Source: Candidatus Heimdallarchaeum aukensis (GTDB lineage: Archaea > Asgardarchaeota > Heimdallarchaeia > Heimdallarchaeales > Heimdallarchaeaceae). From it: a stretch of 64,000 nucleotides of DNA. Every line of letters starts with the position of its first letter. Positions within the stretch are counted from its first letter, which is position 1. The notes beneath the pieces were generated by a model. The model ran no database searches. It was not told the DNA's origin and worked only from the letters and a program-made list of their open reading frames with translations. Shown piece after piece: positions 27,943-54,374 of this stretch. Both the position numbers and the translations under genes were made by a program. The stretch covers positions 992,001 through 1,056,000 of the forward strand of contig CP084166.1 in the NCBI GenBank assembly GCA_021513695.1, written 5' to 3'.

Positions 27943-27989
27943 CAAATTTTTTATAGAAAAATAAAACTAATGCTTTTTTTATTTTTTAT

Positions 27990-29462: not shown

Positions 29463-30686
29463 TTAAACTGGTCTACTTTTTCCAATACTTCTGTATTCAC
29501 AGTTATTGTCAAGAAGAATTGGAATCTCTCTCATTTCAGTTATACATTCATGAATTGGGTATAATTCTATAGTTGTAGTACCAAATCCTTTCTTAATTTG
29601 AATTGCATGCTCAAAATTATCAGCATTCTCTAAAGCTACCTCTAATATTGATTTATGTAATTCTCTTCCACAAATGTCACATTTAAAGTAAATTTGCTTA
29701 TTGATCTTGGTTTCTAATTGTTCTTTGTTTAATATGTTATGAGATTCGAAAAAGGTAATCAATTTATCTTTAACCTTTATTTTAGCAACAGAGATGACTT
29801 CTTCTGTTTTGAACATTTTTCTCATTTGATCACAAATTTCATGAAAAGTAGAAATCTGCTGATTTAACTGTTCTTGCGAAGAAAAAACTGAAGTAATGAC
29901 AAGGTCTTCTTCGATTTCTCTAATAAATATCCTTGAGTCACTCAAAGAAAAGACAATATAATTCAAATCAAGACTAGGTGAGTAGATCTTAACTAGTTCA
30001 GAGCGTAATCTGGAAAGATTGAGATTAACTTCTTTTTCTGGTTCAGAGTATAAAACCAAACCTTTGGAAGTTGATAGGGTTAGAAGATTTAGATTATATT
30101 CTGATACTATCTCTTGAATGTTAGAAGCTTTTGTTAGGTCTCTAGGATAAACAACAGAAAAAATTCTTTGCATTGCATCCCATATATTCTCTTCAAAGAT
30201 AGAAGTTTCATAGATTTCAGAATTGGGATACTTGCTCAACTCAAAAATATCTTTAATTGAACGTGTAATAGCAGCCCTTTTGTCAACAGGAACAACATCC
30301 ATTTTATGGGCGAAAACATAGATTCTAGCGCTAGAACCAATTTTTTTAAGATTATCCAAAGTAAGATCAAAATAATATTTAGAACGCATGATGTTAGAAG
30401 CATCAGAAATATCAACAACATAAATCAAAGCTTTAAGGTCACTAAAAGTTCTTTCAGTATATTTCTCAAAAAGCTCATTTAAATAAGAAGATTGACCTCC
30501 TACATCAACAAGATTAATAGAACTTCCTGCAAAATTGAAAAGCTTACGATTAATTCGAACTGTAGCAGGATTAAGAGAAGTTGCTTGAGGAGCAAAGCCT
30601 TCAAAAACAACTTGACGAATAGAAGTTTTACCAGATTGAGATAACCCCAGAATAACAATTTTTGATTGAAGTGAACGATCATTCAT
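29463..30686 (-). CDS. Rag/Gtr1-like GTPase with roadblock-like domain and C-terminal Cys/His cluster
   Basis: G1 ILGLSQSGKTSI, G3 LVDVGGQSSY, G4 FAHKMDVV. The middle part is LLTLSTSKGLVLYSEPE...IVFSLSDSRIFIREIEEDLVITSVF. The C-terminus carries CDICGRELHK...HEC. Its stop abuts the stop of the convergent GTPase gene (29462/29463). Confidence 0.75.
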   Translation of the reverse strand: MNDRSLQSKIVILGLSQSGKTSIRQVVFEGFAPQATSLNPATVRINRKLFNFAGSSINLVDVGGQSSYLNELFEKYTERTFSDLKALIYVVDISDASNIMRSKYYFDLTLDNLKKIGSSARIYVFAHKMDVVPVDKRAAITRSIKDIFELSKYPNSEIYETSIFEENIWDAMQRIFSVVYPRDLTKASNIQEIVSEYNLNLLTLSTSKGLVLYSEPEKEVNLNLSRLRSELVKIYSPSLDLNYIVFSLSDSRIFIREIEEDLVITSVFSSQEQLNQQISTFHEICDQMRKMFKTEEVISVAKIKVKDKLITFFESHNILNKEQLETKINKQIYFKCDICGRELHKSILEVALENADNFEHAIQIKKGFGTTTIELYPIHECITEMREIPILLDNNCEYRSIGKSRPV

Positions 30687-32802: not shown

Positions 32803-32871
32803 TCTTTTCCTTCCTTCTTTTCTTTTTCTGTTTATTTTTTCTCTTGTTTTTTCTTCTTATCTTTTTTTATT

Positions 32872-32899
32872 CTACTTTTTTTCCCTATAAAAACCCCTC
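32872..32899 (-). promoter_or_regulatory. IS-borne promoter block (minus strand gaggggtttttatagggaaaaaaagtag)
   Basis: Near-identical to 4908-4936 of copy 1, with a TATA-like tttttata. Confidence 0.4.
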
Positions 32900-32973
32900 T
32901 CCTCTTTCTCCTCTCCTTTCTTCTCTTTTTTCTCTCCTTCTTCCTCAACAACTGTAAATTACGTGAAAAATAG

Positions 32974-34990: not shown

Positions 34991-36031
34991 TTATGCTCTT
35001 TCACATTTATTTTTTTCATTATTTTCTACAATACATAGTTCTAGAAGTATATCATACGTTTTTATCATCTCTCTCATAGTTTTTAACATTATTGGGTAAA
35101 GACGCATAATACTATGATTCTTTGTATATTTATAATCTGAATGATAATTAGGATAACGCGAAGCACCAACATGTTTTTCCAAATTCATGCTTAAAATAAC
35201 TATATATGCAAACAGTAGTATAAGATAAAGATAACTTTCTATTTGTACTAACCAATCTTCTTTCTGAATTTGTGTGATAAATTCTTCTCTCAACATTCTT
35301 CGCTCATCAGTTTGCAATTTGATATTATATTCTTGTTCGATTGTTTGAATGACATAGTCTGTTATGCTAATGAACTCTTCTTTCACAATTTTATCAAAAT
35401 TTTCTTTTCTTATGGATTTTATTCCTTTCCTAAATAATGAAAACAGCTTGTTGTATTTAATTAATATTTCCTTTAATGTAGTGTGTTCAAGATACAGAGT
35501 TTCTTCTGATTTCCTTTTTTGCTCATAATCACTCAAATATTTATCAATTGCTTCTATAATGCTTAAAAATCCTTCTCTTTGGTTATCATTAGAATAATCA
35601 GCTAAAGATTCATAGAGATCTTTTAGTTTTTCGAAGAAGAATTTAGTAAAAGTATGTCCAACTTTTATAAGCCGTTCAGTTTGACACAGTCCAGTAAGTA
35701 GAAGTAGTGATTTTCCTAATTTCTCAACAGATTGTTGGAGGAAGAAAATAGACTGTGCATATAGTTTCTTGTGATATAGAATTTTTGAAGCTCTTAAATC
35801 CTCTTCAGCAGTATCTAACAGTCCTAAAGCTGATATTAAATCTCTCTTTTCTGGTGGGATCTCATACTGTGATCCATATTTTAATTGCCATATTAATTGC
35901 CTTTTGATATCTTCTATATCTGTTTCTTGTAATGCAATTTTGTCATTATTATCATTCATTAAATAGCACTGATGGTTAATATTTAAATAATTAATGGCAA
36001 CTATTATCATAATGCAATAAAAATCGAGCAT
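34991..36031 (-). CDS. HEPN-domain protein
   Basis: ALGLLDTAEEDLRASKILYHKKLYAQSIFFLQQSVEKLGKSLLL matches the first helices of the classic HEPN domain. The C-terminal GASRYPNYH supplies the RYP / R-x4-H motif. The probable start is the internal MNDNNDK. Confidence 0.55.
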   Translation of the reverse strand: MLDFYCIMIIVAINYLNINHQCYLMNDNNDKIALQETDIEDIKRQLIWQLKYGSQYEIPPEKRDLISALGLLDTAEEDLRASKILYHKKLYAQSIFFLQQSVEKLGKSLLLLTGLCQTERLIKVGHTFTKFFFEKLKDLYESLADYSNDNQREGFLSIIEAIDKYLSDYEQKRKSEETLYLEHTTLKEILIKYNKLFSLFRKGIKSIRKENFDKIVKEEFISITDYVIQTIEQEYNIKLQTDERRMLREEFITQIQKEDWLVQIESYLYLILLFAYIVILSMNLEKHVGASRYPNYHSDYKYTKNHSIMRLYPIMLKTMREMIKTYDILLELCIVENNEKNKCERA

Positions 36032-38624: not shown

Positions 38625-38666
38625 TTTGAATATTATTCTTTACTTTTTTCTAGCTCTAATCCTCTC
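38625..38666. repeat. 42-nt IS-leader-like repeat, copy A
   Basis: tttgaatattattctttacttttttctagctctaatcctctc is identical at 39 of 42 positions to 41084-41125, in the same orientation. Confidence 0.85.
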
Positions 38667-41083: not shown

Positions 41084-41280
41084 TTTGAATATTATCCTTT
41101 ACTTTTTTCCAGCTCTAACCCTCTCCCCTCTCCCATCTTTACAATCCTTCTTTCCCCTGAAATTATTTTTTTTGTTTCCTTTTTCTATATTCTCTTTTCT
41201 TTCTAACCAACCTTATACTCTTTTTCTTTACCTTTGTTCTTGTTATTGCTTTTGTTACTGTTTTTAGTCCTAGTTCTGTA
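41084..41280. repeat. IS-leader-like repeat copy B plus about 150 nt pyrimidine-rich tract (solo left-end remnant, minus orientation)
   Basis: 41084-41125 matches copy A at 39/42 positions. Its reverse complement gagagggttagagctggaaaaaagtaaagg aligns with the IS promoter block gagggttttaaatagggaaaaaaagtaag. The adjacent CT-rich tract mirrors the purine-rich leaders of both tnpB elements. ORF 41085..41267 is low-complexity and not credible. Confidence 0.6.
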
Positions 41281-41500: not shown

Positions 41501-42637
41501 ATGATGGAAATAAACAAAATTTATCTTAAAGATTGTATAGAAGGTATGAAGGAACTTCCTGAAGATAGCATAGATTTAATATTTGCAGATCCACCATATA
41601 ATCTTCAATTGAAAAATGAATTATATCGACCTAATCAGTCATTAGTGGATGCTGTAAATGATGAATGGGATAAATTTTCATCATTTGAAGAGTACGATGA
41701 TTTTACAAAAAAGTGGTTATCAGAATGTAGGAGGGTGTTAAAAAAAACAGGTTCTATATGGGTAATAGGGTCGTATCACAATATATTTAGAATCGGAAAA
41801 ATAATGCAAGATTTAGGTTTCTGGATATTAAATGATATCATTTGGATAAAAACAAACCCTATGCCAAATTTTAGAGGTACTAGATTTAATAATGCACATG
41901 AAACTCTGATTTGGGCTTCGAAAAATGAAAAAGCTAAACCTACTTTTCATTATAAAGCTATGAAGGTATTTAATAATGATAAACAAATGCGAAGTGATTG
42001 GTATATTCCAATTTGTATAGGAAAAGAAAGGTTGAAATTAAACGGAAAAAAATTACATTCTACACAAAAACCTGAAGCATTGCTATATAGAATAATAATA
42101 TCAACATCAAATGTAAATGATATAGTGCTTGATCCTTTTATGGGTTCAGGTACTACAGCTGCAGTAGCAAAGAAACTAAGAAGGAATTTTATTGGTTTTG
42201 AAACAAATGAAATATATGTAAAAGCAGCAAGAGAGAGAGTTGTTAAAGTCATACCCATGGATCCTGACATTTTGGATTATAAAGTGGAAAAAAAACCACC
42301 AAAAGTTCCTTTTGGTACTTTAGTAGAACATAATTATATTAAAGCTGGAGATTGGCTTTATTCAAAAGATATGAGATATAAAGCAATAATAAAAGCAAAT
42401 GGGTCAATTGAATATCAAGGTAAAAACGGTTCTATTCATAAAATTAGTGCTCAAATTTTAAATAAAAAAGCAAATAATGGATGGGATTTTTGGTATGTAA
42501 AAGAAAACGATAATCTTGTATCGATTGATACTATTAGAAGAAATTATGCAAGTAAAAACATGAATTATATGAATGATGAAATAGATATGAGAAATAAAAA
42601 AGTAACAGACAAACTTTTAACTAATTACTTGGAATAA
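41501..42637 (+). CDS. Beta-class N6-adenine DNA methyltransferase, CcrM / M.HinfI family (likely GANTC)
   Basis: Motif IV IFADPPYNL precedes motif I VLDPFMGSGTTAAVA (beta-class order), and HSTQKPEALL is present. The C-terminal VPFGTLVEHNYIKAGDWLYS...NGSIEYQGKNGSIHKISAQIL...NGWDFWYV parallels the CcrM-specific C-terminal domain. Confidence 0.9.
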   Translation: MMEINKIYLKDCIEGMKELPEDSIDLIFADPPYNLQLKNELYRPNQSLVDAVNDEWDKFSSFEEYDDFTKKWLSECRRVLKKTGSIWVIGSYHNIFRIGKIMQDLGFWILNDIIWIKTNPMPNFRGTRFNNAHETLIWASKNEKAKPTFHYKAMKVFNNDKQMRSDWYIPICIGKERLKLNGKKLHSTQKPEALLYRIIISTSNVNDIVLDPFMGSGTTAAVAKKLRRNFIGFETNEIYVKAARERVVKVIPMDPDILDYKVEKKPPKVPFGTLVEHNYIKAGDWLYSKDMRYKAIIKANGSIEYQGKNGSIHKISAQILNKKANNGWDFWYVKENDNLVSIDTIRRNYASKNMNYMNDEIDMRNKKVTDKLLTNYLE

Positions 42638-42642
42638 TCTTC

Positions 42643-43512
42643 GTGCTTACTAATTATCTTCCCTATGAAGTTTTTAAAAGAATATTAACAAAGACAATCT
42701 TTCAAAATGCTAAAATAAGTTTATTAGAAAAAGTTGCTAAATATCCTTCAAGATATACAGGTTTATTTAGGCCTACCAAACCTAAATTAAAATTAATCCA
42801 GAACATTACTCAATCAAATGAAATTCTATTTGGCGATGCTTTTGAGATCATAATTAATGAATATTTGAATAGATTAGGTTTCTCTCCAATTAAAAAAAAT
42901 TATTCCTATAATGGAAATGACTTAATGTTTGATCAGATTGTAGGAAAAGAAAATACTATTATTTACATAGAACAAAAAATAAGAGATGATCATGATTCAA
43001 CAAAAAAAAGAGGTCAAATAGAAAATTTTGAGAAAAAGGGTGAATTATTATTGAAACTATATCCTGATTTCAAAATTACTGGTATAATGTATTTTATAGA
43101 CCCAAATTTAAAGAAAAATCGAAGATATTATATGCAAGAATTACAAAGAATAAGTACTCAATTTAATTTTGAAACTCATCTCTTTTATGGAAAAGAGTTT
43201 TTTGAATGGATAGGAAAAGATGAAATCTGGTTAGAAATAACAAGCTATTTATCAAAGTGGAAAGAAGAGATACCTGATTTTCCCACAATTAATTTTGATG
43301 AAAATCCCGAAGAATCTTTTGAGGAAATCAAGCATCTACAACCTAATTTACTGATAAAGCTTCTAAGAAATGATGCAATATGTAAGGAGATTTTTCCCGA
43401 ATTGTTCCCGGAAAAAACGACATTAAATCTACTTCTGGAATACTATATTCATGAAAGAGAAAAAAATAAGACTAATACAATGGTTATTGAACATTTAAAA
43501 AAAGTGTTGTGA
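42643..43512 (+). CDS. Putative type II restriction endonuclease partner (PD-(D/E)xK-like)
   Basis: It starts 5 nt after the methyltransferase stop. FDQIVGKENTIIYIEQKIRD gives a D-x13-E-x-K arrangement. The assignment rests mainly on context. Confidence 0.5.
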   Translation: MLTNYLPYEVFKRILTKTIFQNAKISLLEKVAKYPSRYTGLFRPTKPKLKLIQNITQSNEILFGDAFEIIINEYLNRLGFSPIKKNYSYNGNDLMFDQIVGKENTIIYIEQKIRDDHDSTKKRGQIENFEKKGELLLKLYPDFKITGIMYFIDPNLKKNRRYYMQELQRISTQFNFETHLFYGKEFFEWIGKDEIWLEITSYLSKWKEEIPDFPTINFDENPEESFEEIKHLQPNLLIKLLRNDAICKEIFPELFPEKTTLNLLLEYYIHEREKNKTNTMVIEHLKKVL

Positions 43513-44322
43513 AAAAAAATCTAAAATCACAAAAAAGATCTATATAATTGTACGATTTTTTGTTCAAAAAAAAACTATCACCGTTTGATTGACATGTTAT
43601 AAAAATAGTTTCTGAAGAAAAACCTTTACATCCATTAACTCTCAGATGCTTTATACCATTATTTTGAAATAGATACTACATGCTTGAATTAAAATGAATT
43701 TCTGGACTAGTTGATTTTCCTTTCTTAATTATAAATTATATAATTTTCCTAATTGAATTGAGAGATAATTTTTCTTTTTCAAACCAAGCATGATCTATTA
43801 TAGGAGGTTTTAAACGGAGAAGATTCAAACTTTGGATATATATTCTACATATATTATAAATATTGTTTGATATTCATCATTTGAGTTTCTCAATAAAAGA
43901 TTATTCCATATTTTAGTTTCTAGTTTGAAGATTATGAATTATTTAATAAATGTCTTAAATTCGGGATACCTTTCTTTCATATTTTCCTCAGAATCATGTA
44001 ATGGAATTTGTAGTGTTCCTTTTACTAATATTCTATATTCCTCAAGTTTAAGAATATGATTTGATTATAGCAGTGTGCCATTACTTGTTATGTTTGTTGT
44101 TATTTTTTTCGATAAATGTAGAGATTCTGGTAAAGAAATAATGTTTTCAGTTATGAATTGTATATTATCATGAAATCTAACCTTCTTAATTTAACTCAAA
44201 TTAATTAAGTAGTAAAGATAATAAAAGAAGGTATCTAAATGTTTATTGCGGAGATTTATTATAGGGTTTTTAATTTTCATCTCCCACATCGAATAATACG
44301 CATTTATCAATAAATCCTTATA

Positions 44323-45342
44323 TTAATTAGAGCAATATGAAGTTTTATTTGTGAAAATTTCAGGATCATCTAGTTCTCTCAATCTTTTAAGTGTAACACT
44401 TTTCCATTTATCATAAAAATCAACTAAAATACCTTCTTTTTCCTTTAATGTTGGTTTTCCTGTATCATCATCCATAATAAATTCAAATCCGTAATCAATC
44501 TTAAAATTAAATTGATCTGTATGCAAAACTCTTTCATGAGGAAACTTAATATCGTTATCCAAAGATGAACAAAAATTATAATGTCGAACTTCAATATGAA
44601 TTGATGAGTTTGAATATAAACCAAGCCAGTCCATTATATTTTTCTTTGTTGATTGAGGATTATATCTATTTGCTTTCGGTGTTGTAGTACAAATAATAAA
44701 ATTGCCATTTCTTATATTCTCCTTTTCAAATTGTTTTACTAACCAATTTAATGTTTTATAGTGTCGCTTATTATTAACTAAATTTACACCAAGATATCTG
44801 TCCACAATCATTACTTCCTTTGCAAATCTGAATATCTTTTTGATAAATCTTGAATGCACTTCTGTTAAATTATTTAATTCTGCTAAGTTTAATGATGTAT
44901 TCTGTATTTTATTGTAGAAATCTATTTCTGTAATTAATTCCTCTGATACATAGCTACTACTCAATTTTCCAATTTCACACTTATTTCTACAATTATTGTA
45001 AGGAAGTATTATCCAATCTGGATTTTCTCTGCTTTGAATTTCACAATAAGCTATACATTCATCTTTTTTTTTCTTTCCTTCAATTTTAATTTCAATTATT
45101 CTTCTATTATTTTGCATATTCGAAAGCATTTCTTCTATGATGAGTCTTTCTTCTATTGGTATAAGTGAAAGGGTTTTTGATTTAATAGGTAAACTAAAAC
45201 CTTCTGGTTTTAGAAGTATACCGTTTTTTCTAAGGGAAATCAATAAAGAAACTAATATTTTAGAACGATACATAATAAGCGTAGAATTTTCAGAATTGTC
45301 ATCTAAAATTTTAGGAGATAATACAAATGTCTGTACCGTCAT
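44323..45342 (-). CDS. Hypothetical protein, fourth gene of the four-gene operon
   Basis: A 339-aa uninterrupted ORF. Its ATG overlaps the ATPase stop (ATGA at 45339-45342). No confident motif was found. Confidence 0.5.
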   Translation of the reverse strand: MTVQTFVLSPKILDDNSENSTLIMYRSKILVSLLISLRKNGILLKPEGFSLPIKSKTLSLIPIEERLIIEEMLSNMQNNRRIIEIKIEGKKKKDECIAYCEIQSRENPDWIILPYNNCRNKCEIGKLSSSYVSEELITEIDFYNKIQNTSLNLAELNNLTEVHSRFIKKIFRFAKEVMIVDRYLGVNLVNNKRHYKTLNWLVKQFEKENIRNGNFIICTTTPKANRYNPQSTKKNIMDWLGLYSNSSIHIEVRHYNFCSSLDNDIKFPHERVLHTDQFNFKIDYGFEFIMDDDTGKPTLKEKEGILVDFYDKWKSVTLKRLRELDDPEIFTNKTSYCSN

Positions 45343-47249
45343 TCAAATAGCTCCTTATAACTTAGATCAAAGAAATCATCTGGCCATTCATTTATAAAAT
45401 TACCATGTTTGTCAAATTCGATAGGAACTATATTAGCTCCTAGTTTTGTTTTTTCAACAAATATAATTGATATAAGTTTTGGACTTATTTTCTTTTTCCT
45501 AATGAGTTTTTTGATTCGTAGAATTAATTGTTGACTATGAGTTTCAATTATAAATTGTTTTGATAAATTCCTTTTAACATGTTCAACAAAAAATTCTCCC
45601 AATTCAGCTTGCAATCTTGGATTAAGATGTATCTCTGGTTGTTCTATTAAAAGAATTTCATTTGGTTTATTTGACATTATCGTTTGTACAAGAATGGGGA
45701 GAACCTGACTCACACCAAATCCAATATCCGGTAATGCCACCGGATATTTTGTGATATTATCTTCGAATTTCAAGGAATATACCCCTGATAGTTTGTCTTT
45801 ATCTGCTGTATATGAGACTGTGTAACCGATTTTTAGTTTTTTCAACCAATTATTTAGTTCATTTATTTTATTTTTATATGAATAGATAAAATCTGCTGTT
45901 TTTGATCCTGAAACACCTACATTAATAGGTCTACTCCCTCCAAATATGTAATATCGAGATGGTTTATCTCTAAGAGGACCAATAAAAGTAATGCTCTTCA
46001 TCAATTCAATGAATTGATTTCTATTCTCTTCAGTCACGTCATAATCAAAATATAAATTCTTTTTTCCATGTTCAAGTTTAAAAAACGTGTTGATTTTAAG
46101 TAATTCACCTTTAATTGGATTACCAACAAATTCAATAGATAAATTATGATGAATAAACTTAATTAATTTGTTAATTAGATCTGTTTCTATCTCCGATGGG
46201 TCTTTAAACATAATAATTCTAAATAATTTCTCAATTTTCATATTAATTGATTCTTCAATTAGAATCCTAAAATCATGATCGATTAAAATATCATCTTTTA
46301 TTTCATTTAAACCAATTTCAACCTTTTTGCAAATTTTTTCAATTATTTTATCTTTTTTTAACAGAAAAAATTTGTTTTTTTCTAATTCTCTTCTAATTTT
46401 TTCTACTATATTTTTAATTTCAATTTTTTTCGCTTGACTATTTTCCTGATAAATTTTCAATATAGTTTCTATAGGAACTTTAATATTAATCGTAGGAATT
46501 TTATCGTTATCAAAATGAATCTTCTTTTCAATTTTTTCTTCTATATCAAAGACATCAATTTTAAATTTCTCTTCATATGCAGAATAAGAGATTATAAATG
46601 GTGTATCAATGTTTTCAACAATTGTGATTTTCTTGTATCCTCCAGATATTGACTCTCTCAAAAACGGTAAAAGAATCATCGGTATAACTCTTTCTGTACT
46701 TATTTTTGAAAGAGAACAAGTATATTTTATCCGCTGATAAATCCTAGAATTTTCTGTTTTGCAATATACTAATTTTGCTGAAATTAATGATTTTTCAATC
46801 TTTTTGCCATAATTTCTAGATATTCCCCATATTATTTTATCTAAAAGAATGTAAGGTCTCTCTTCAATCTTTTTTGAAATGTATGTTAAGTTGATTTTGA
46901 ATTTTTTAAAAATCCTTTCCTTGTATGGTGAAATATGAAGATAATCTGAGGATCGCCACTGTAACCCAATTTCAACTCTTTTTCTAGTATCATGACCAAA
47001 AACAATTTCTTCGAAAGGTCCAATATCAACATAAGTCCCTTGATGTAGAAGAACATTATTTGGGTCATTGTCTTCTATAGTTTGTTTTAAGGCTAAAAGT
47101 GATTTCAAAATAGATGATTTTCCACTACTATTTTCTCCAAATATCAGTGTAATCGGTTTACATGGTATTCTAGAGCCCTTTTTTCCAAAGGCTTTAAAAT
47201 TTCTTAAATAAATTTCAGTTAACATGAACAAACACCAAGTTTCTTTCAT
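45339..47249 (-). CDS. ABC/SMC-like AAA ATPase (AAA_15/AAA_21-type, as in OLD/Septu/PARIS-class defence ATPases)
   Basis: The N-terminus is LTEIYLRNFKAFG...ITLIFGENSSGKSSILKSL (Walker A). About 400 aa of helical insert follow, then LLIEQPEIHLNPRLQ (Walker B / D-loop) and IIETHSQQL (H-loop). The probable start is ATG at 47225 (MLTEIY). Confidence 0.8.
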   Translation of the reverse strand: MKETWCLFMLTEIYLRNFKAFGKKGSRIPCKPITLIFGENSSGKSSILKSLLALKQTIEDNDPNNVLLHQGTYVDIGPFEEIVFGHDTRKRVEIGLQWRSSDYLHISPYKERIFKKFKINLTYISKKIEERPYILLDKIIWGISRNYGKKIEKSLISAKLVYCKTENSRIYQRIKYTCSLSKISTERVIPMILLPFLRESISGGYKKITIVENIDTPFIISYSAYEEKFKIDVFDIEEKIEKKIHFDNDKIPTINIKVPIETILKIYQENSQAKKIEIKNIVEKIRRELEKNKFFLLKKDKIIEKICKKVEIGLNEIKDDILIDHDFRILIEESINMKIEKLFRIIMFKDPSEIETDLINKLIKFIHHNLSIEFVGNPIKGELLKINTFFKLEHGKKNLYFDYDVTEENRNQFIELMKSITFIGPLRDKPSRYYIFGGSRPINVGVSGSKTADFIYSYKNKINELNNWLKKLKIGYTVSYTADKDKLSGVYSLKFEDNITKYPVALPDIGFGVSQVLPILVQTIMSNKPNEILLIEQPEIHLNPRLQAELGEFFVEHVKRNLSKQFIIETHSQQLILRIKKLIRKKKISPKLISIIFVEKTKLGANIVPIEFDKHGNFINEWPDDFFDLSYKELFE

Positions 47250-47317
47250 TCACACTCTTGATGAATTCTTTACAAATTTATGTAATAAAAATAAAAACTT
47301 TTCTGGAATATCTATGT

Positions 47318-50300
47318 TTAATTTTCACTAAGATATTTTATTATTTTAGGAAGTAGGAAAACATTTTTTCTTAATGTTGAAAAACTTAATGCTTCTCCTA
47401 GAAGTGTGTGAACTTGTTTAGGTATTTTTCCAAACATTGGATGACTAACTACATATCCATAGGTAAATGATTTGAAATTCCCACTTTCTATTATTACACG
47501 CATTGGCTCTTCCAACAAGCTCATATCACCAAAGTAAATGCTTGATAATGGTGATGATAATGCTCTTAAACGTTCAATAGTTGCTTTTTCAATATCTTCA
47601 CTCAAAAAAATATCACTATCTTCTATTATATCAAGAGTTATTAATAAATATGAATCACCAGCAAATATAATTGGTGGACTTAAAAGTTTACTAAATTTTT
47701 TTGCTAATGAAAATGCATTATTTGTTGAGTTGATAAAATGATATAAGCTTGGATATTTTCTACTTTTTTCATCTTTTTTTACATTTCTTCCATAATAAGT
47801 TCTGACCATCTTTTCTAAGTAGTTTAATCCTTTATTTATTGTGTATAAGTTTCGAGGTTTTTCCAGATAATTAAGTATTTCTTGTTTATCTGTTTTGTCA
47901 TAAGCTTTTACTGTTACACGAAAACCTTTTGCTATTTGTTGATTAGTGACTTTATAGAATAGATAAGAAGGTATCGTCATATCATTCCATCTACCTGCTT
48001 CATTAAATGTAAGTATAAATTCAGGAGAGGGATATAATCTGAAATGGTTTAATGCTGTTTTTATAGATGGAAAATAATTTTTCAAAAAATCATCTAAATA
48101 GATATTATCAACTGAAAATGCTCTTTTACTAACTCTTCCAAATAGACTGAATTTTCTTTTAGTTCTTTCCGAAATCTTGCTTCTGCTAAAAACTGGTAGG
48201 ACATGTTCATTATTGTTGATTAGTATATCTCTAATAAAACTTCTTAACTGATGAAATTTGATATTTTGATCTTTTAGAGTGGCATTTTTGTTCAAAGCAG
48301 AAATCATAGACACTAATCTTGGCTTCAAATCTGTTTCTTCTCCTCTCATCCTTTTAATTACTTGCCTAAAATATTCTAGATTGATCATAGAATCGAAATA
48401 AGTTGTTGAGCCATAGTCTGTTTTTAAGGGGAAAGGAGGAAGGATAATTAAAATTTCATGCCATGAATATGTAGTTCCAAATGCTAATGAAGAGGTTCCT
48501 ACTATATTTTTTTTAGGTGTTTCTTCTATTAATAATGTGTCACGAGAATCGTGAGTAATAGAAACTGCATCATAATTGTTTAAATGGAGGTATTCTACTA
48601 ATGAATCTACAAACTGTTTATTGTTAACATAAAAAATTACTTTACCCTCTTGTAAATATTTTTCAAATGATTTTTTTCTATTGTCAATTCGTGATTTTTT
48701 TACAAGCTTGTCTAATATTTCAAAAATTTTTTTAAAATTTATTTCCTCTTCATATTTACCCTCACAAATAAATGATGCTGCACAATAATCAATATTGAAA
48801 TTTAAGAGATATCTCAGAAAAATACCTTTAATCGGAGTATTAATTATTTTAAATTCCTCTGGTTCTTGAATGTCTTCATTAAAATTAGTTATTTGAAATT
48901 GTGTCATCCATTTTTTTGAATTTGGATCAACTAATGTGTTCAACATGGAAATTACTAATTTCATACTTGTGATAGATGCATCAGTAATTACAAAGCGAGG
49001 AACATTTATGTTATTATTTACCATTAATCGATTCCTTGCTTCTATTAGTAAATCAATAAAATTTTTTGCAACTGTTGGTCCAGAATTAGTTAATTCATCA
49101 AAGATGAACATATATGTCTTTGTGAATAGTAATTTCCAATTGTATGATTGTTTTAGAAAATAATCTAAAGCTTGGGAAGATACTAATATAACTTTTTGTC
49201 CTTGTTTCTCTAGTGCTTTTTTCAATCGATTTCCTGTTTCACTGAAAATTGTTTCATACCCCTTAAGTGTTATTGGATCTCTTATTAACTCTTTTTCTCT
49301 TTTACCAATAATTAATTCTAAATGGACATTTTTTTCTATATCATTTTTGATTAATCTTTGAATTTTATCTTTAGTTTGTATTAAGGTTGTAATTCTTGGA
49401 CAGAAATACAGAATAGTAAAGTTTTTTTTAGTTTTTGCAAGCTTTTTAATATAATTTGCAATCACATAATTTTTTCCAACACCTTGAGATGAACCATTTA
49501 TTATTATATTATAACAATCATTGGTTAATAATTTTAGGAAGTTCTTCTCATGTTCTTTTCTTACATTTTCTATTTCGTTTCTAGTAACACTCTGTCTTTT
49601 TACGATAGAAGGTTGAATCTTCTCTTTAGTTTCAGGATAAGCTTCAATAAATTCTGTTTTTTCATCCTTCAAAATTATTTTTAACTCCTCTCCTCTAGTT
49701 CCTTCAAAAAAATACATTCTTTTATTGTTTTTTTCTTTTATTCTCATCGATATTTTTCCACTCATAAATAATTCAAAAATTCGTCTTCTTTCAAAATCTT
49801 CCAATATATATTCTTTCTTTTTACCAAATTCTGTTTCCACTATAGTACTAGGAATCAAGTTACATAGAAATCGTAATATTTTCCTTAAATCGGTTTCAGA
49901 TTTAATATGAAAAGAAGATATAGCTCCAGGTAAAACTATTTGAACTTCAATCTCACTGTTATAATTTTGAGTTTCGTTATAATATAATTGTGCATAGGAG
50001 AATACTTTTAAGTATTTCTGGAGAGCTGTTGCAATTCTGTAAAAATCTCTTGCAGGAATCTTTTTGTTCTTATGTAAATTTAGTTTTCTTAGTTTTTCCT
50101 TTGAAAAATCTTCGACAATTAATTGTTCAATATAATCTTGAAGTAATCGCTCTTTCGTCATATTTACAAAAAATATATATGATTTAATATCGCCAATACA
50201 TAAGAACTCGATTTGGTTCATTTCATAATTAAAGGCTTCCTCTTGATTGTTAGATGTTTTCTTTCTAATGATTATAAAATCAGGTTTTTTTTCCCTAAAT

Positions 50301-50779
50301 GTTGGTTCTATAAATATTTCTAATTCTGTATCTGGTTTTTTCCATTCAAGATTTGCATTTAGTAATACCGATATTGAACATTGAAATCCTGTTTTTATCA
50401 TTCTTAAGGCTGTATATCCCACTTTTTGTTCTTCCAAAATATCTGTGATTTCTCTTTCATCAATCTTTAAGTCTGTTCTAAACATTTGCCTTTTTTGAAA
50501 ATAATTTTTAAATATTAAGTACGAATCTGTGATGCTTGATTTTCTGATAAATAAATCGATTGCTTGTTCTATCTGTATTCCAATTACATTTTCAAGATAT
50601 GAATTCAACTCTATTCTATTTTCAATATCTAAAATAGGTGGTTCAATTCTTATGCCTACAAAAGGTTTAATGTTGTAGCATTTTGATTTTGACGCAATTC
50701 CAAGAAAGAATCCAAATTCAAGTGCTTCTCCATATATTAATGGTGCTATTCTATTAATTTTCTTTTCGTAATTTACCAT
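47318..50779 (-). CDS. Large (1153 aa) nuclease-helicase-like protein
   Basis: N-terminal PD-(D/E)xK-like pattern EIFIEP...KPDFIIIRKK...EFLCIGDIKSY. P-loop IINGSSQGVGKNYV (about nt 49469-49498). Walker B/DExx-like MFIFDELT, then VITDAS, GTSSLAFGTTY and FRQVIKRMRG (motif VI-like). The motifs are degenerate. Confidence 0.5.
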   Translation of the reverse strand: MVNYEKKINRIAPLIYGEALEFGFFLGIASKSKCYNIKPFVGIRIEPPILDIENRIELNSYLENVIGIQIEQAIDLFIRKSSITDSYLIFKNYFQKRQMFRTDLKIDEREITDILEEQKVGYTALRMIKTGFQCSISVLLNANLEWKKPDTELEIFIEPTFREKKPDFIIIRKKTSNNQEEAFNYEMNQIEFLCIGDIKSYIFFVNMTKERLLQDYIEQLIVEDFSKEKLRKLNLHKNKKIPARDFYRIATALQKYLKVFSYAQLYYNETQNYNSEIEVQIVLPGAISSFHIKSETDLRKILRFLCNLIPSTIVETEFGKKKEYILEDFERRRIFELFMSGKISMRIKEKNNKRMYFFEGTRGEELKIILKDEKTEFIEAYPETKEKIQPSIVKRQSVTRNEIENVRKEHEKNFLKLLTNDCYNIIINGSSQGVGKNYVIANYIKKLAKTKKNFTILYFCPRITTLIQTKDKIQRLIKNDIEKNVHLELIIGKREKELIRDPITLKGYETIFSETGNRLKKALEKQGQKVILVSSQALDYFLKQSYNWKLLFTKTYMFIFDELTNSGPTVAKNFIDLLIEARNRLMVNNNINVPRFVITDASITSMKLVISMLNTLVDPNSKKWMTQFQITNFNEDIQEPEEFKIINTPIKGIFLRYLLNFNIDYCAASFICEGKYEEEINFKKIFEILDKLVKKSRIDNRKKSFEKYLQEGKVIFYVNNKQFVDSLVEYLHLNNYDAVSITHDSRDTLLIEETPKKNIVGTSSLAFGTTYSWHEILIILPPFPLKTDYGSTTYFDSMINLEYFRQVIKRMRGEETDLKPRLVSMISALNKNATLKDQNIKFHQLRSFIRDILINNNEHVLPVFSRSKISERTKRKFSLFGRVSKRAFSVDNIYLDDFLKNYFPSIKTALNHFRLYPSPEFILTFNEAGRWNDMTIPSYLFYKVTNQQIAKGFRVTVKAYDKTDKQEILNYLEKPRNLYTINKGLNYLEKMVRTYYGRNVKKDEKSRKYPSLYHFINSTNNAFSLAKKFSKLLSPPIIFAGDSYLLITLDIIEDSDIFLSEDIEKATIERLRALSSPLSSIYFGDMSLLEEPMRVIIESGNFKSFTYGYVVSHPMFGKIPKQVHTLLGEALSFSTLRKNVFLLPKIIKYLSEN

Positions 50780-50780
50780 T

Positions 50781-53702
50781 TTATATCAACTTCTCCTGAA
50801 TTTTTATTCTGTTTATCCCTTTGATGAAAATACTTGGATCTAGCAACTTTTTGGAATCAGGATATGGTAGATGAAATAACCTTTTTAAACTTTCAATACT
50901 AATTCCGCCTTTTTCATCTCCGTAAATGGTTAATATTCTTGAGAATTCTTTCAAATAAGAAATAGTTTCTTCAGACGATCTTTCATATGGTATTACAGTA
51001 AAAATAAGAGACGGTTGTAAATCTTTTTTAATTTCACCCTCAAGCTTTTCTTCTCTTCTCGAACCAAAAATCAACATTCCAACTATTTTTCTCTTATCTC
51101 TTCCATTATATTTCAAAGGTTCATTAATATATATAATTAATTGTCTATTTGATTTTGACTTTGGCAGTAATTTTCCAATTTCTCTTGAAGGAGTAAAAAT
51201 AGCTTTTTCATTAAAAACAAACAATGGAATTTTTAATTGTTTATTCTTTTCAAATATCCAGTCAATAATGGTATCTTCTTTACTAAGATCACTATCTTGT
51301 ATTTTTCTATTTACAGATTCAGATATAATGTCATAAGTGCTCTCCGTTCTTGAACTATGTTTAGCTCTTATTAAAATTAGAATATCTTCTTTTGCTAATT
51401 CTGATACTATTAGTGAGGCTAATTCAAAATTTATATCGCATCCTATGTTTCCAAATGAATCTTCTATAAAGTTTTCCTCCATTACATTAATTTCTCGTTC
51501 ATCAGTTAGGTGAGCATAAGCTGCGATATTTCTTATGTATCTTTGTTCTTCTTTAATTATTTCGACCCATTTTTCTGATGAAAGAGAAAGTAATAATATA
51601 TCTTTTGTTTTTATTAATTTATCAAGAGCTTTATCATGTAGAGTATATCCCGCTGTAGAAGTATTTTTTAAGGAGTGTGAAGTAAAATACCATTCATCCA
51701 TAAATAATCTTCCAAAAGCTTTATTTATATTATGATAATTTGATAAAAACTTGTACAAATAGATACCAGGTAAAGCAATTTTTTTCTCTTTGGAAGCTGT
51801 TTGATAAGTAAATAATTCTACTTTACCTATGTTATCAAAAGTATAAAATGAAAAAGGTCCATCGAAGTATTTTAAGATTTGATTTTTTGACCATACTACA
51901 TTCCCGTTTTTTCTAATACCATCTTTTGTCATCATTTGAACATTAATACGTCTTCTTGACCTATTGATTGTACTTTTATTTTGCCAGATTTTCTTTATTA
52001 TTTGCCTAATCTCTTTTTCTTTATATTCTTTTGATAAAGAATCAAAAGAAAAGCCTTGAGAATATTCGAAATATTTTGTTTCCCATGAGTGTACTCCTTT
52101 TAATAACATATAATAAAATTCATGAAAAAGACTTCTTTTTACTTTCTTCGATAAATATGGGATAAACCAAATGTTATCTCCTCCTTTTACAAATCTAAAT
52201 TCATGATTAAGCCTTGTTAAAGATTGTTTAATATCAGGGTCATTAATTAGGTATAGTATTGCACTATCTATAACTGCCTTTAAAGATGCAAAAAATCTAT
52301 AATTGTCGTTGTTTAGTCTTTCTCTCAAATCTGTATTAATTCTTTTGTGATATATTTCAATTTCTTCTGGAAAAAATTCAGTATTTGCTATAAGATAAGT
52401 GATAAATTCTTGTAATCCATATTCTTTATCTCCATACCAGATAGATGTTTTATTTTTTTCATCAATTCCTTCATTCTTTTTTAAATAAATATTTTCATGA
52501 ATAAAAACTATCAATCTTTTTGGATTTATTTGTTTGGGAGAGATGTTTATCTTTTGAATTCTTTCTAATTTCTCTTTTTTTGCGCATAAGTAATGATCAA
52601 ATTCTGGAAATTCACAATTTTCAACAATTTCCTTTAGTTTATCAAATAATTCTTCAAAATCTTTATAACTTATTTCGTTAAAACCTAAAAGTATTGAAAA
52701 AGCGAATAATTTATCTTTAATATCTTCAACCATTTCTAAGAATTCTTGGTCATTTGTATCCATTTGTTCCATTATCCATTCTTGAAGGTTAATGAGTAAA
52801 GGCAAGATTGTTTTTTCTTTATTCCAGCCTTCTCCATATATTCTGAAACAATAAAGGTTTTTATCATAATCTTCATGAAGATTAAGAAATTTTGGGCAGC
52901 TTCCTACAGAGATTAATCCAGGAAAAGAAGGAAATGACATACCTTTGAAACTATGATTTATTATTTTCTCAAACAGAGTTTTCTCTTCAGCTGATAATTT
53001 TTTAATAAATTTATCATTCTTAAGTAAGACGGTACATTCTTTCTTAAAATCTAAATATCTGTCGTATGCAGCATTACGAACTTCTTCATTTCTAATGTAT
53101 TTTATATAATATTTTACTAATTTTTTCTGAACTGGATTATTAATAATGTTTGAAAATTGCTCTGTAGCTTTAATGGAAACTTCTTCTGCTTTTAAAGCTG
53201 TTTTAAAAAATGAAATTGGAATCTCATTTTCATGAATTTTCTCATTTGCGTTTCTAAATCTTGATTCATTTTCTTGAATTTCAATATAAGAAAAAGTAGA
53301 ACCAACTTCTTCTGATTTCCATTCATCTCGCTTTGCTTTATCCCATAATGTTGCTGGATTTTCATACTTTTTTTCTTTTTTCATTAACTCTTCTTTAATT
53401 GTGATTATAACTTTGTCGCTTATCTCTAATAATGTAGTATTAGGACTTTGGACAATTCTAGATTTTAGCTTTTTCACCAGTAACCAATTTTGTAACGAGG
53501 GATCAGATATTTCATTAATTTCTTCTAATGTATTTTGATACGCTTTGTGAACTATTCTACAAAAATCATCAAAGGGATATGTTATAGTACAAAGCATATC
53601 AAAGAATTTTTTATCCTGAATATATTCTGAAATTAATTTTGAGAAGAATATAGACCAAAATTCTTTATCTATTCCTTCTGTTAGTTTTACTAATCTAGCC
53701 AC
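50781..53702 (-). CDS. Large (973 aa) hypothetical protein, first gene of the four-gene operon
   Basis: Uninterrupted ORF with a GTG start preceded by gaggaga. Its stop is separated by 1 nt from the next gene's ATG. No recognisable catalytic motif was found. Confidence 0.5.
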   Translation of the reverse strand: MARLVKLTEGIDKEFWSIFFSKLISEYIQDKKFFDMLCTITYPFDDFCRIVHKAYQNTLEEINEISDPSLQNWLLVKKLKSRIVQSPNTTLLEISDKVIITIKEELMKKEKKYENPATLWDKAKRDEWKSEEVGSTFSYIEIQENESRFRNANEKIHENEIPISFFKTALKAEEVSIKATEQFSNIINNPVQKKLVKYYIKYIRNEEVRNAAYDRYLDFKKECTVLLKNDKFIKKLSAEEKTLFEKIINHSFKGMSFPSFPGLISVGSCPKFLNLHEDYDKNLYCFRIYGEGWNKEKTILPLLINLQEWIMEQMDTNDQEFLEMVEDIKDKLFAFSILLGFNEISYKDFEELFDKLKEIVENCEFPEFDHYLCAKKEKLERIQKINISPKQINPKRLIVFIHENIYLKKNEGIDEKNKTSIWYGDKEYGLQEFITYLIANTEFFPEEIEIYHKRINTDLRERLNNDNYRFFASLKAVIDSAILYLINDPDIKQSLTRLNHEFRFVKGGDNIWFIPYLSKKVKRSLFHEFYYMLLKGVHSWETKYFEYSQGFSFDSLSKEYKEKEIRQIIKKIWQNKSTINRSRRRINVQMMTKDGIRKNGNVVWSKNQILKYFDGPFSFYTFDNIGKVELFTYQTASKEKKIALPGIYLYKFLSNYHNINKAFGRLFMDEWYFTSHSLKNTSTAGYTLHDKALDKLIKTKDILLLSLSSEKWVEIIKEEQRYIRNIAAYAHLTDEREINVMEENFIEDSFGNIGCDINFELASLIVSELAKEDILILIRAKHSSRTESTYDIISESVNRKIQDSDLSKEDTIIDWIFEKNKQLKIPLFVFNEKAIFTPSREIGKLLPKSKSNRQLIIYINEPLKYNGRDKRKIVGMLIFGSRREEKLEGEIKKDLQPSLIFTVIPYERSSEETISYLKEFSRILTIYGDEKGGISIESLKRLFHLPYPDSKKLLDPSIFIKGINRIKIQEKLI

Positions 53703-54374
53703 AAACTTCTCTCCTCATAGGTAATTGTACTAAAACTTATCTTGAATGTTAAACAATTTCTTTTTTTATTTATATAATTTTTGATAATAAATGTTTTCAT
53801 CTTTTATTCATTTATTATCTGTATTCAATAAATTATTCATGAGTTTAGTTTTATCTTTTTAATATTAATCAAAAATATGCTATATGTTTAACTTTGACGA
53901 CTTAGAGTAATCTCAAATTGTTGTTATAGTAGTTAGATTTATTTTTTATTTATATTCACCCACTAAAGTTTTATTTAACTCGCTTCAACTCTTTAAATTA
54001 AATATGTCTAGTTGATAGATACATTTTCATCCTCCTATACGCTTGAAAATACTAGATGATTCTCTAGTTTAAATTATATGGTTAATGTAAGAAGATATAC
54101 AAGTTTAAATGCCATAAAACGGAGACGTTGGCCATGAAACAAAAATAAATAGAATACTGTTGTTTTCTAAGTGCAAAGAAAAATATATAGAAGTATAAAA
54201 TACAAAAATTAGTGTAAGAGAAAAATAAGAAACTCAACAAGAATTTACAAAAAGTAGTTTAGCATAAAAAATAAGAAAGTATTTTATTATGGTGCAATTG
54301 CTAAGACATGACAAAATAATATGGTTGTTTGGTGATTTAATTAGAAAAATTTAATAACCAAAGTAATTAAAAAA

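Follow-up and report, generated by a model that had tools for sequence, protein, structure and literature searches.

Gene layout at the locus

The window (the whole 64,000-nt stretch of DNA analyzed here) comes from the Asgard archaeon Candidatus Heimdallarchaeum aukensis and carries, on its minus strand, an ATPase ORF at 45339-47249 followed by an ORF at 44323-45342 that encodes a 339-aa partner, a predicted effector with an NsnC-like two-domain architecture. The ATPase is 636 aa long as the longest ORF and probably 628 aa from an ATG at 47225. The two genes close a run of genes, opposite a convergently oriented type II restriction-modification system whose methyltransferase and restriction enzyme adjoin the pair (Pfam, PADLOC). 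Upstream in the run lie a gene for a 973-aa protein without a family and one for a 1153-aa protein, called a helicase here, that has only a weak ResIII match. GC content is 25-27% over 42-54 kb of the window, compared with 29-34% in the flanks of that block, and other candidate defense genes occur in this low-GC island. The window was found free of tRNAs, CRISPR arrays and Rfam RNAs, no cas gene or CARF regulator was found there near the pair, and a search for island-flanking repeats returned no convincing ones.

As the sequence-only reading of this DNA had pointed out, the ATPase stop codon overlaps the partner's ATG (ATGA; TCAT on the plus strand at 45339-45342), and the coding strand at the junction reads ...GAATGACGG.... 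Within the 3′ end of the ATPase gene, 9-12 nt ahead of the partner's ATG, there is a GGAG. The overlap of -4 is not a chance feature, because relatives show it as well: it recurs in the closest ones (L001, L002, L004) and in L015 and L017, and about 30 relatives of HEC-03 type have it too. Judged from the sequence, translation of the two genes is coupled. The intergenic gap between the stop of the 1153-aa gene (47318) and the first ATPase ATG measures exactly 68 nt (47250-47317, minus strand; 22% GC), the length given in the same reading. A second in-frame ATG is present at 47225 (MLTEIYLRNFKAF) with GGTG just before it, and all homologs aligned with the ATPase (alignment A3) begin there; since the homolog starts and the GGTG favor this codon, the gap is more likely 92 nt (to 47226). 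The 68-nt gap could be a putative internal archaeal promoter or terminator region. It contains TATA-like T/A runs (TTTTTATTTTTATTACATAAAT), which in surrounding DNA of 26% GC are weak evidence for a promoter.

The product of 45339-47249 is identified by sequence as an ABC ATPase of NsnB/HEC-03 type that ends in a DUF3696 tail. Pfam returned AAA_21 (6e-18), AAA_15 (3e-14) and DUF3696 (PF12476; 1.3e-5, above the gathering score), the last covering a helical C-terminal tail (residues 588-635; 45345-45488, minus strand). In PADLOC the best match was NsnB (1.7e-58), followed by the HEC-03 ATPase model (1.9e-52), PDC-M55A (9e-51) and AriA (2e-22), with weaker matches to GajA and PtuA through the ATPase core (1e-8 to 1e-10). 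The NsnB match is partial, lying mainly at residues 391-634, and positions 206-435 of the 458 in the HEC-03 ATPase model align to residues 410-628 only. PHROG 21420 matches over the full length (5e-52), and the nearest solved structures are remote (OLD, 9e-6; PtuA, 7e-5). An identity with PDC-M55 was rejected: the ATPase model of that system matches (9e-51), but no member of the partner family matches its partner model at E ≤ 1.

The nucleotide-binding motifs of the ATPase are all intact on the minus strand. They comprise a Walker A/P-loop, GENSSGKSS (residues 38-46; 47112-47138), taken from the translation, with G..GKS conserved in alignment A3; a Walker B region, ILLIEQPE (residues 532-539; 45633-45656), whose E, Q and P are invariant in A3; and an H-loop, IIETHS (45534-45551), whose H is invariant in A3. 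An insert of ~300 aa that is specific to the clade separates Walker A from the signature/Walker B region. Neither the ATPase nor the partner contains a CARF, SAVED or other recognizable signal-binding domain. When the two proteins were compared by tblastn with 50,697 phage records, the ATPase gave C-terminal matches only, in Klebsiella phages, and the partner gave none.

Fold and predicted active site of the partner protein

Profile and structure searches of the 339-aa protein, which the sequence-only reading had suggested, were empty at the level of family libraries (Pfam, PADLOC, NCBIfam and PHROGs), with no match in Pfam or PADLOC to the TOPRIM, DUF4435 or HNH-type effector families of PARIS, Septu and Gabija. 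A word-indexed homology search with the single sequence found one relative and a 27-sequence profile found three proteins; an exhaustive HMM profile search opened up a family of about 30 distant relatives. This family is rare and sporadic (about 31 clusters in a set of 1.84 billion representative proteins), and its profile matched nothing meaningful among PDB sequences. Because the ~30 distant relatives supplied an alignment, a confident AlphaFold2 (AF2) model of the partner could be obtained (pLDDT 83.5); a model made with only two sequences reached a pLDDT of 49 and was not used for searches. From this model and a Foldseek search a PIN-like plus phospholipase D (PLD) architecture emerged.

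The N-terminal domain (about residues 1-160; 44863-45342, minus strand) is PIN-like and predicted to be catalytically inactive. Its family columns (1-165) hold no invariant D or E, that is, the catalytic acidic residues of PIN domains are absent; in a comparison with the acidic residues of VapC-like PIN domains, S9-P10 follows β1 and position 46 is a proline in the window protein. Two pairs of conserved cysteines, C96/C100 (45043-45057) and C118/C122 (44977-44991), lie in this domain on the minus strand. The C-terminal domain (about residues 165-339; 44326-44850, minus strand) is predicted to adopt the PLD α/β fold, of the MIT_C/PB-PLD1 type. Foldseek ranked MITD1 first (E 1e-4, probability 1.0), and the single-domain PLD nucleases Nuc, NucT, BfiI, NgoAVII, SauUSI and BrxL-HRD were also among the structural matches.

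The stretch FPHERVLHTDQ...IDYGFEF, noted earlier and left unassigned, is present at residues 267-288 (44479-44544) and proved to be a family signature. Within it, PHERVLHTDQ (44512-44541, minus strand) has the form HxR(x)4(D/N)Q. This is apparently the HKD motif of PLD proteins with Arg in place of Lys, and it is the predicted active site; HxR(x)4(D/N) was matched to the HKD position by motif spacing and the literature. All 27 of 27 relatives have H269, R271, T275, Q277 and G285, and at position 276 D is present in 19 of them and N in six. A second conserved stretch, IVDRYLG (44788-44808, minus strand), directly follows the first strand of the PLD domain, with D181 and G185 invariant and R182 nearly so; it is the counterpart of the conserved D/E reported for PB-PLD1 (PMC12065111). 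The PADLOC NsnC model was weakly matched at this stretch by eight of the 27 family members, the window partner not being one of them. Pfam MIT_C matched four of the 27, the window partner itself falling below the model, and BrxL in PADLOC matched one.

These motifs have precedents. The NsnC protein of the Menshen system consists of an inactive PIN domain and a polymorphic effector, one form of which is PB-PLD1 with an MIT_C-like HDR site (Li et al., NAR 2025, PMC12065111); that motif has been described for PB-PLD1/MIT_C (PMC12065111), and the "HRD" variant of HKD in BrxL-HKD is considered active (PMC12839542). The partner had been suggested to be a new effector type, and this can no longer be maintained, as a PIN-like domain joined to an MIT_C-like PLD is already known from one NsnC class (PB-PLD1; PMC12065111). 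We regard the partner as a likely nuclease effector. Nuclease activity is not assured, because the closest solved match, the MIT_C domain of MITD1, binds membrane and has no demonstrated catalysis. The PLD-fold domain might accordingly be no nuclease at all, serving membrane or lipid binding as in MITD1 or hydrolyzing phospholipid head groups, so that the effector would act on the membrane. We consider this unlikely, since the single-domain PLDs that prokaryotic conflict systems use act as nucleases (Nuc, NucT, BfiI, NgoAVII, SauUSI, BrxL-HRD; PMC12839542), the fusion partner of this domain is PIN-like, of a nucleic-acid-binding type, and the AF2 model shows no evident membrane anchor, whether transmembrane or amphipathic. 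The conserved and confidently modeled HxR-type site (H269, R271, D181) is directly testable for nuclease activity, and its status bears on whether MIT_C-type domains, including those of BrxL and MITD1, are enzymes. That a prokaryotic immune-effector PLD of the MIT_C type, present in this Heimdallarchaeon, was the evolutionary source of the C-terminal domain of eukaryotic MITD1 is an idea to which we attach very little weight.

Conserved pairing and genomic context

The sequence-only reading had likened the two genes to the ABC-ATPase and effector pairs of Septu, PARIS and Gabija, and a survey of the genes that follow ATPase homologs bears out a conserved pairing of this kind. After HMM iteration, the partner family was found directly after the ATPase in 36 of the 88 loci examined, and on contigs found through the partner the pairing held in 7/7. 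In a neighbor-joining (NJ) tree, the 29 full-length ATPases that bear a partner formed one clade, sister to true HEC-03 in this survey and with no HEC-03-type ATPase inside it. ATPase clade and partner family co-occur without exception among the sampled loci, and relatives of the pair occur in bacteria as well.

The genomic settings in which the module is found are unrelated, and it moves between them. BLAST clustering of neighbors revealed no conserved third gene across the 36 partner-positive loci, and the recurrent neighbor clusters that were scanned were RtcR-like regulators or Cas/RAMP proteins. Six of the 36 loci lie among cas10/cmr/RAMP/cas1-cas2 genes (L003, L005, L011, L013, L026, L043), and in seven others an RtcR-like regulator with CARF, sigma-54 AAA+ and HTH domains adjoins the pair (L014, L021, L023, L039, L059, L061, L062); these loci are spread over more than one ATPase lineage in the NJ tree. 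Elsewhere the pair stands alone, in one relative among housekeeping (metabolic) genes (L006), in another adjoining ThsB-TIR (L002) and in a third with split genes (L007), a form of degradation also seen in L008.

In the window, the pair had been read as a sensor/effector sub-module embedded in a larger system, so that the four minus-strand genes would be one system in which the ATPase and partner work with, or back up, the helicase. The four genes are co-directional and tightly packed, with the 973-aa and 1153-aa genes adjacent and a gap of only 68-92 nt between helicase and ATPase; all four share the same low-GC block, and ABC-ATPase pairs embedded in larger systems are documented (10.1101/2024.01.29.577857; PMC12839542). 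We nevertheless find this arrangement improbable. At one locus (L088), homologs of both large proteins (47% identical to the 973-aa one and 52% to the 1153-aa one) sit together, and the gene after them is a convergent PLDc_2 gene, not an ATPase or partner gene. None of the 35 partner-positive loci other than the window has a homolog of either protein within 6 kb. The ATPase pair is, moreover, terminal in the run and not placed between system genes. No relative of the 973-aa protein turned up in a metagenome scan, and the 1153-aa helicase had no match among PDB sequences. By sequence, the 973-aa and 1153-aa genes are a separate conserved pair, and because that pair occurs elsewhere without the module, the module is juxtaposed in a low-GC defense island and not embedded. 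Taken as a whole, the ATPase and its partner are a variant of the Menshen/HEC-03 systems not described before, neither a new effector type nor part of a helicase system.

The six loci among type III cas genes and the seven beside RtcR-like regulators, in more than one ATPase lineage, also raise the idea that the pair serves type III CRISPR-Cas or CARF signaling as an accessory: signals of cyclic oligoadenylate or RNA damage would induce or license it, in place of its own sensing of infection. We hold this to be very unlikely: the surroundings of the window pair and the two proteins themselves show none of the elements searched for above, three relatives (L006, L007, L002) stand alone, and co-location in defense islands is common without functional coupling. 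A toxin-antitoxin-like addiction module or a housekeeping module for RNA quality control with no antiviral role is hardly credible, despite the Pfam label that relates AAA_21 to a "putative AbiEii toxin", the RNA repair genes normally found under RtcR and the metabolic surroundings of L006, given that the nearest tested relatives are defense systems, that the window copy sits in a low-GC island with restriction-modification and other candidate defense genes, and that the sporadic, rare distribution of the family and its degraded copies (L007, L008) are typical of defense genes and not of housekeeping ones.

A candidate two-gene immune module and its relation to known systems

The reading that we favor, and consider probable, is that the pair is an autonomous two-gene immune module resembling HEC-03 and the NsnB-NsnC half of Menshen, without NsnA. 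An antiviral role is probable by extrapolation from those two systems. In an AF3 model of NsnB-NsnC, the DUF3696 tails sandwich the inactive PIN domain of the effector (PMC12065111). Following the NsnB4-NsnC2 model and the structures of Septu and PARIS, ATPase oligomers would clamp the PIN-like domain of the effector between two DUF3696 tails and so keep the PLD domain inactive. With no NsnA, the ATPase itself would detect a viral cue, the ~300-aa insert being the likely sensing element, and ATP binding or hydrolysis would then free or rearrange the effector. The single-HKD-type PLD domain would probably dimerize, as in Nuc, BfiI and Zucchini, and the dimer may cleave phosphodiester bonds of nucleic acids, leading to aborted infection or degradation of the invader.

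If this proposal holds, the Menshen NsnB-NsnC core can stand as a self-sufficient two-gene system without a DUF262 sensor; the question of sensing therefore shifts to the ATPase, and the pair offers a simpler system for studying effector control by DUF3696 ATPases. It would also place ABC-ATPase immunity of this kind in an Asgard archaeon, a group with a small catalogued defense repertoire. A broader claim, which we advance tentatively, is that the long-insert DUF3696 ATPase and the PIN-like/HRD-PLD protein make up a distinct, unnamed defense system spanning Bacteria and Asgard archaea, in which the insert replaces NsnA as the sensor and which bacteria have repeatedly recruited, either as an effector that backs up type III CRISPR-Cas or under the control of RtcR-like CARF regulators. 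Such recruitment would link the system to cyclic-nucleotide or RNA-damage signaling, and the repeated occurrence of bacterial relatives in type III CRISPR-Cas loci or beside CARF-sigma54 regulators provides a lead on regulation.

Among known systems, Menshen shares with the window pair an ABC ATPase with a DUF3696 tail and an effector encoded immediately downstream. The PB-PLD1 class of NsnC likewise combines a PIN-like N-terminus without catalytic residues with an MIT_C-like PLD C-terminus, and has the conserved Asp after an early strand and the H-(D/E)-R motif. The pair differs from Menshen in that NsnA (ParB-DUF262 + ParBDB) is absent directly upstream and in the window, in that its ATPase carries the extra ~300-aa insert and aligns only partly to the NsnB model, and in its host, an archaeon, whereas Menshen has been catalogued from bacteria alone.

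HEC-03 (Hma-embedded candidate 03) is a pair of an ABC ATPase and a PIN protein (Payne et al., bioRxiv 2024, 10.1101/2024.01.29.577857); both genes are needed for phage defense, and the system is toxic when induced (10.1101/2024.01.29.577857). The layout is the same as in the window, a DUF3696-type ABC ATPase gene followed, usually with a 4-nt overlap, by one for a PIN-fold protein. The HEC-03 ATPase is, however, ~460 aa long (full-length model match of 3.7e-127 for L034, positions 1-454), compared with 628-636 aa here, and its PIN-only protein has ~160-180 aa (1e-28 to 1e-31), compared with 339 aa for the window partner, in which a PLD domain is added. The window partner had no PADLOC match to the HEC-03 PIN model, homology between its N-domain family and the small PIN family of HEC-03 was undetectable by hhalign (probability 10%), and no Hma system surrounds the window pair.

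More distant parallels are PARIS (AriA-AriB), Septu (PtuA-PtuB) and Gabija (GajA-GajB), in which an ABC ATPase oligomer also holds or regulates an adjacent or fused nuclease effector. Their effectors are TOPRIM/DUF4435 (AriB), HNH (PtuB) and a fused TOPRIM (GajA), in contrast to the PIN and PLD domains of the window partner, and their ATPases lack the DUF3696 tail. On the side of the PLD domain, MITD1, from eukaryotes, has an MIT domain, binds ESCRT-III and acts in cytokinesis; its identity to the partner is only 11-13%. BrxL is an AAA+/Lon-like component of BREX, some forms of which carry an HRD-type HKD domain at their C-terminus.

Gene organization at the ATPase-partner locus

The ATPase-partner locus belongs to the closed 3.08-Mb genome of the Asgard archaeon Candidatus Heimdallarchaeum aukensis, and the ORF table shows a run of four minus-strand genes there (44323-53702). 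The run encodes proteins of 973 aa (50781-53702), 1153 aa (47318-50779), 636 aa (the ATPase; 45339-47249) and 339 aa (the partner; 44323-45342), the last being identical to a H. aukensis hypothetical protein. The ATPase and partner ORFs have positions 45339-45342 in common, which read TCAT on the plus strand and ATGA in the coding direction; a GGAG occurs 9-12 nt upstream of the partner ATG. A 68-nt gap with 22% GC (47250-47317) precedes the ATPase ORF. The overlap and the gap, both described in a sequence-only reading of the locus, were thus borne out. Since every homologue begins where the ATPase has a second ATG (47225; MLTEIYLRNFKAF), which is preceded by GGTG, the functional gap is more likely 92 nt.

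To the same reading the ATPase and partner had looked like an embedded sub-module, a view that did not survive the survey of relatives. The 1153-aa protein has two homologues, and in both cases a 973-aa homologue (47% identity) is encoded ahead of it; these pairs lie on two metagenome contigs (L088, 7038-13450; L089, 3527-8737) and show 47-61% identity. What comes after the pair in L088 is a PLDc_2 gene in convergent orientation, with no ATPase and partner there. Conversely, when all neighbors up to 6 kb from the pair were clustered by BLAST over the 36 partner-positive loci, homologs of the two large proteins appeared only in the window. Each pair is therefore found without the other, and the window run consists of two independent two-gene modules in tandem. 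Searches of PADLOC, NCBIfam and PDB returned nothing for the two large proteins except a weak ResIII match at residues 412-563 of the 1153-aa protein. Because its L088 homologs are surrounded by UvrD-like helicases, the PLDc_2 protein and a radical-SAM gene, the 973-aa/1153-aa pair may be an undescribed helicase-based defense pair.

Convergent to the ATPase-partner pair is a plus-strand, type II restriction-modification system (41501-43512) comprising an N6_N4-type methyltransferase that carries a RAMA domain at its C-terminus (PADLOC MTase_II, 1e-171), together with a restriction enzyme (REase_II, 7e-76). The 810 nt between these genes and the partner stop codon (43513-44322) contain no ORF of at least 60 aa. 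GC content is 25-27% over the restriction-modification genes and both modules (42000-54000) and 29-34% in the flanks, a compositional pattern consistent with a horizontally acquired island; neither a tRNA gene nor a clear flanking repeat was found at its borders. Taken as a whole, the block around the pair is a defense island. Further mobile-element or defense-type genes occur at the island edge, a few kb from the modules, and encode a TnpB-like protein with a Cas12f1-like TNB domain (31345-32802, minus strand), adjoined by two short tandem repeats (32818-32943), and a 346-aa HEPN-domain protein (34991-36031, minus strand). In addition, a 42-nt direct repeat (38625-38666 and 41084-41125; 93% identical) brackets 2.4 kb containing two uncharacterized minus-strand genes (150 and 447 aa). 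The repeat may have arisen by duplication of a promoter or terminator region, or its copies may be the termini of a small element that inserted here. Farther away (23335-30686), two convergent small GTPases of the Gtr1/RagA family (490 aa, plus strand; 407 aa, minus strand) directly follow a 1535-aa protein lacking a Pfam domain. GTPases of this family belong to the eukaryote-like signature proteins that typify Asgard archaea.

Domain composition of the ATPase and its partner

The ATPase matched AAA_21, AAA_15 and a C-terminal DUF3696 in Pfam. Its best PADLOC models were NsnB of the Menshen system (1.7e-58), the ATPase of the two-gene system HEC-03 (1.9e-52) and PDC-M55A (9e-51), with far weaker matches to AriA, GajA and PtuA. 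Its ATPase motifs are intact and conserved (Walker A, GENSSGKSS; Walker B, ILLIEQPE; H-loop, IIETHS), and an insert of ~300 residues between Walker A and the signature region is poorly conserved in relatives. The nearest solved structures by sequence, an OLD-family protein and the retron PtuA, are both remote. The full-length protein matched PHROG 21420 (unknown function; 5e-52), and its C-terminal third resembled an unannotated gene of about a dozen Klebsiella phages (OK490394.1 and 13 others; 31% identity), indicating that DUF3696 ATPases are carried by phages too. No member of the partner family was found in the phage records searched.

For the partner itself, Pfam, PADLOC, NCBIfam and PHROGs all came up empty, and a word-indexed search yielded a single relative (P0002; 49% identity), whose gene is preceded by a 60%-identical ATPase gene with a 4-nt overlap. 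An exhaustive profile search of 1.84 billion representative proteins recovered 31 proteins (E <= 1e-3), almost all with lengths of 310-370 aa. Alignment showed D181, G185, W200, H269, R271, T275, Q277 and G285 to be invariant and R81, C96, C118, F171 and R182 nearly so. The motif left unassigned by the earlier reading is now recognized as part of the family signature, DRYxGR ... PHxR(Y/V)LxT(D/N)Q ... G. Within it, H269-x-R271-x4-D276 has the exact spacing of the phospholipase-D (PLD) motif HxK(x)4D, with a Lys-to-Arg substitution. A comparable "HRD" variant in the HKD domains of BrxL is considered likely to remain active (BREX survey, PMC12839542).

The AlphaFold2 model of the partner was confident when built with the family alignment (pLDDT 83.5, pTM 0.84); pLDDT was 49 when only two sequences were used. 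Foldseek independently put the eukaryotic MIT_C protein MITD1 at the top (E 1e-4, probability 1.00, target-normalized TM 0.68), and comparison with PLD-superfamily enzymes and nucleases ranked PLD (8.5), SauUSI (7.5), NgoAVII (7.1), Nuc (7.0), NucT (6.8), Zucchini (6.7) and BfiI (5.9). Sequence-level matches agree with this ranking: MIT_C was the only Pfam family matched by more than one member (4/27), the PADLOC NsnC model weakly matched eight of the 27 around the DRY motif, and one member matched BrxL.

The remaining domain of the partner is PIN-like. The family alignment showed no invariant acidic residue in it, Ser-Pro follows its first strand where PIN nucleases carry Asp, and residue 46, an Asp in most relatives, is Pro in the window protein. 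On these grounds the domain is predicted to be catalytically inactive. It also carries three to four conserved cysteines, which in the window protein are C96, C100, C118 and C122 (CxxxC ... CxxxC; 44977-45057). Their conservation (C96 and C118, 25/27 each; C122, 23/27) suggests a metal site, putatively zinc; the model is less confident nearby (pLDDT 57-70, residues 120-140). The sections of the Menshen report dealing with its inactive PIN domain mention no zinc site (PMC12065111).

Conservation and genomic contexts of the pair

The pairing proved to be conserved. On each of the seven contigs to which the partner family led, an AAA_15/AAA_21 + DUF3696 ATPase is encoded immediately before the partner gene, in the same orientation. 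The ATPase alignment was then scanned against one genome per GTDB species, with 80 loci kept, and ORFs called at the loci were searched iteratively with a partner HMM. Of the 88 loci examined in all, 36 had a partner-family gene directly after the ATPase, while 42 others encoded a ~460-aa ATPase and then a ~170-aa protein, a type identified by PADLOC as true HEC-03 (ATPase, 3.7e-127 over its full length; small PIN protein, 1e-28 to 1e-31). When the last 250 residues of the ATPases were compared in a neighbor-joining tree, all 29 full-length ATPases with a partner fell into one clade, to which no HEC-03-type ATPase belonged, and the window ATPase grouped with those of L002 and L004. Judged from this distance tree, which carries no support values, ATPase clade and partner type co-vary perfectly in the sample, a result to be read as co-segregation rather than as a resolved phylogeny. 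At two loci the genes are split, with the ATPase divided into 153-aa and 372-aa ORFs (L007, 8367-9933) or the partner spread across two ORFs (L008, 9700-10761); these look like degraded relatives. Gene decay is typical of rapidly turning-over defense genes.

The surroundings of the pair varied widely. Metabolic genes surround it in Hormoscilla (L006), and it adjoins a ThsB-type TIR gene in L002. It directly follows cas10/cmr/RAMP genes in L003 (1-9976), L005 (908-14239) and L026 (345-11322), lying between cmr genes and cas1-cas2 in L005, and L011, L013 and L043 have RAMP, Cas1-like or other conserved neighbors in common with these loci. The relatives lying within type III CRISPR-Cas loci are mostly cyanobacterial, and in L005, L011 and L013 the pair is followed by a gene for a conserved, uncharacterized protein (490-570 aa). 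A gene for an RtcR-like regulator (CARF, sigma-54 AAA+ and Fis-type HTH) adjoins the pair in seven loci (L014, 5571-7064; L021, 2723-4213; L023 and L039, 6216-7769; L059, 6425-7912; L061, 6309-7958; L062, 680-2254), whose hosts belong to Binatia, Syntrophorhabdaceae, Spirochaetaceae and SAR116; this arrangement suggests signal-dependent transcription of the module. The CRISPR and RtcR-like associations are spread over more than one ATPase lineage in the tree. Such varied contexts indicate that the module is mobile and autonomous, and they hint at regulatory ties to CARF signaling in bacteria. No CRISPR or CARF-type gene was found near the window copy.

Proposed mechanism and relation to Menshen and HEC-03

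We consider it fairly probable that the ATPase holds a PIN-PLD effector which, once freed on a viral cue, would cut nucleic acid. This proposal starts from the observed domain composition, intact ATPase motifs, invariant PLD-like HxR site, loss of PIN catalytic residues, translational coupling, strict co-occurrence and mobility; its steps follow, by analogy, the published NsnB-NsnC model and what the structures of Septu and PARIS show. The DUF3696 tails of an ATPase oligomer would engage the PIN-like domain and so keep the effector sequestered. As the module lacks a sensor gene of its own, the ATPase itself would sense the viral cue, probably through its large insert. The nucleotide cycle would then release or activate the effector, whose PLD domain, probably dimeric, is predicted to cut nucleic acid, either DNA or RNA, with lipid a less probable substrate.

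As outlined in the Menshen report (Li et al., PMC12065111), that system comprises a ParB-DUF262 sensor (NsnA), an ABC ATPase with a DUF3696 tail (NsnB) and NsnC, which has an N-terminal inactive PIN domain and a polymorphic C-terminal effector. One effector class, PB-PLD1, is an MIT_C-like PLD domain with an HDR motif and a conserved Asp/Glu following an early strand, and it also occurs at the C-terminus of some BrxL proteins. An AlphaFold 3 model in the same report sandwiches the inactive PIN of NsnC between the DUF3696 tails of an NsnB tetramer. The suggestion that the partner might be a new effector type was consequently abandoned, as its PIN-like and MIT_C-like PLD composition resembles the PB-PLD1 class already described there. 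The pair was nevertheless rejected as Menshen because it lacks NsnA, no NsnA/DUF262 gene having been found in the window defense island. HEC-03, an ABC ATPase and PIN protein that protects E. coli from phage, requires both genes and is toxic when induced (Payne et al., bioRxiv 10.1101/2024.01.29.577857), was rejected on two counts: the window ATPase belongs to a different clade, and the partner carries an extra domain and fails to match the HEC-03 model.

The Menshen catalog covers bacteria only (PMC12065111), and a recent survey of archaeal defense mentions neither Menshen nor HEC-03. The architecture and logic of the module will be familiar to specialists; the useful leads are its sensor-less core, its archaeal host and the CRISPR/CARF associations. 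In its way of working the pair is like both Menshen and HEC-03, and it is an NsnA-less, NsnB/NsnC(PIN-PLD)-type two-gene module in an Asgard archaeon.
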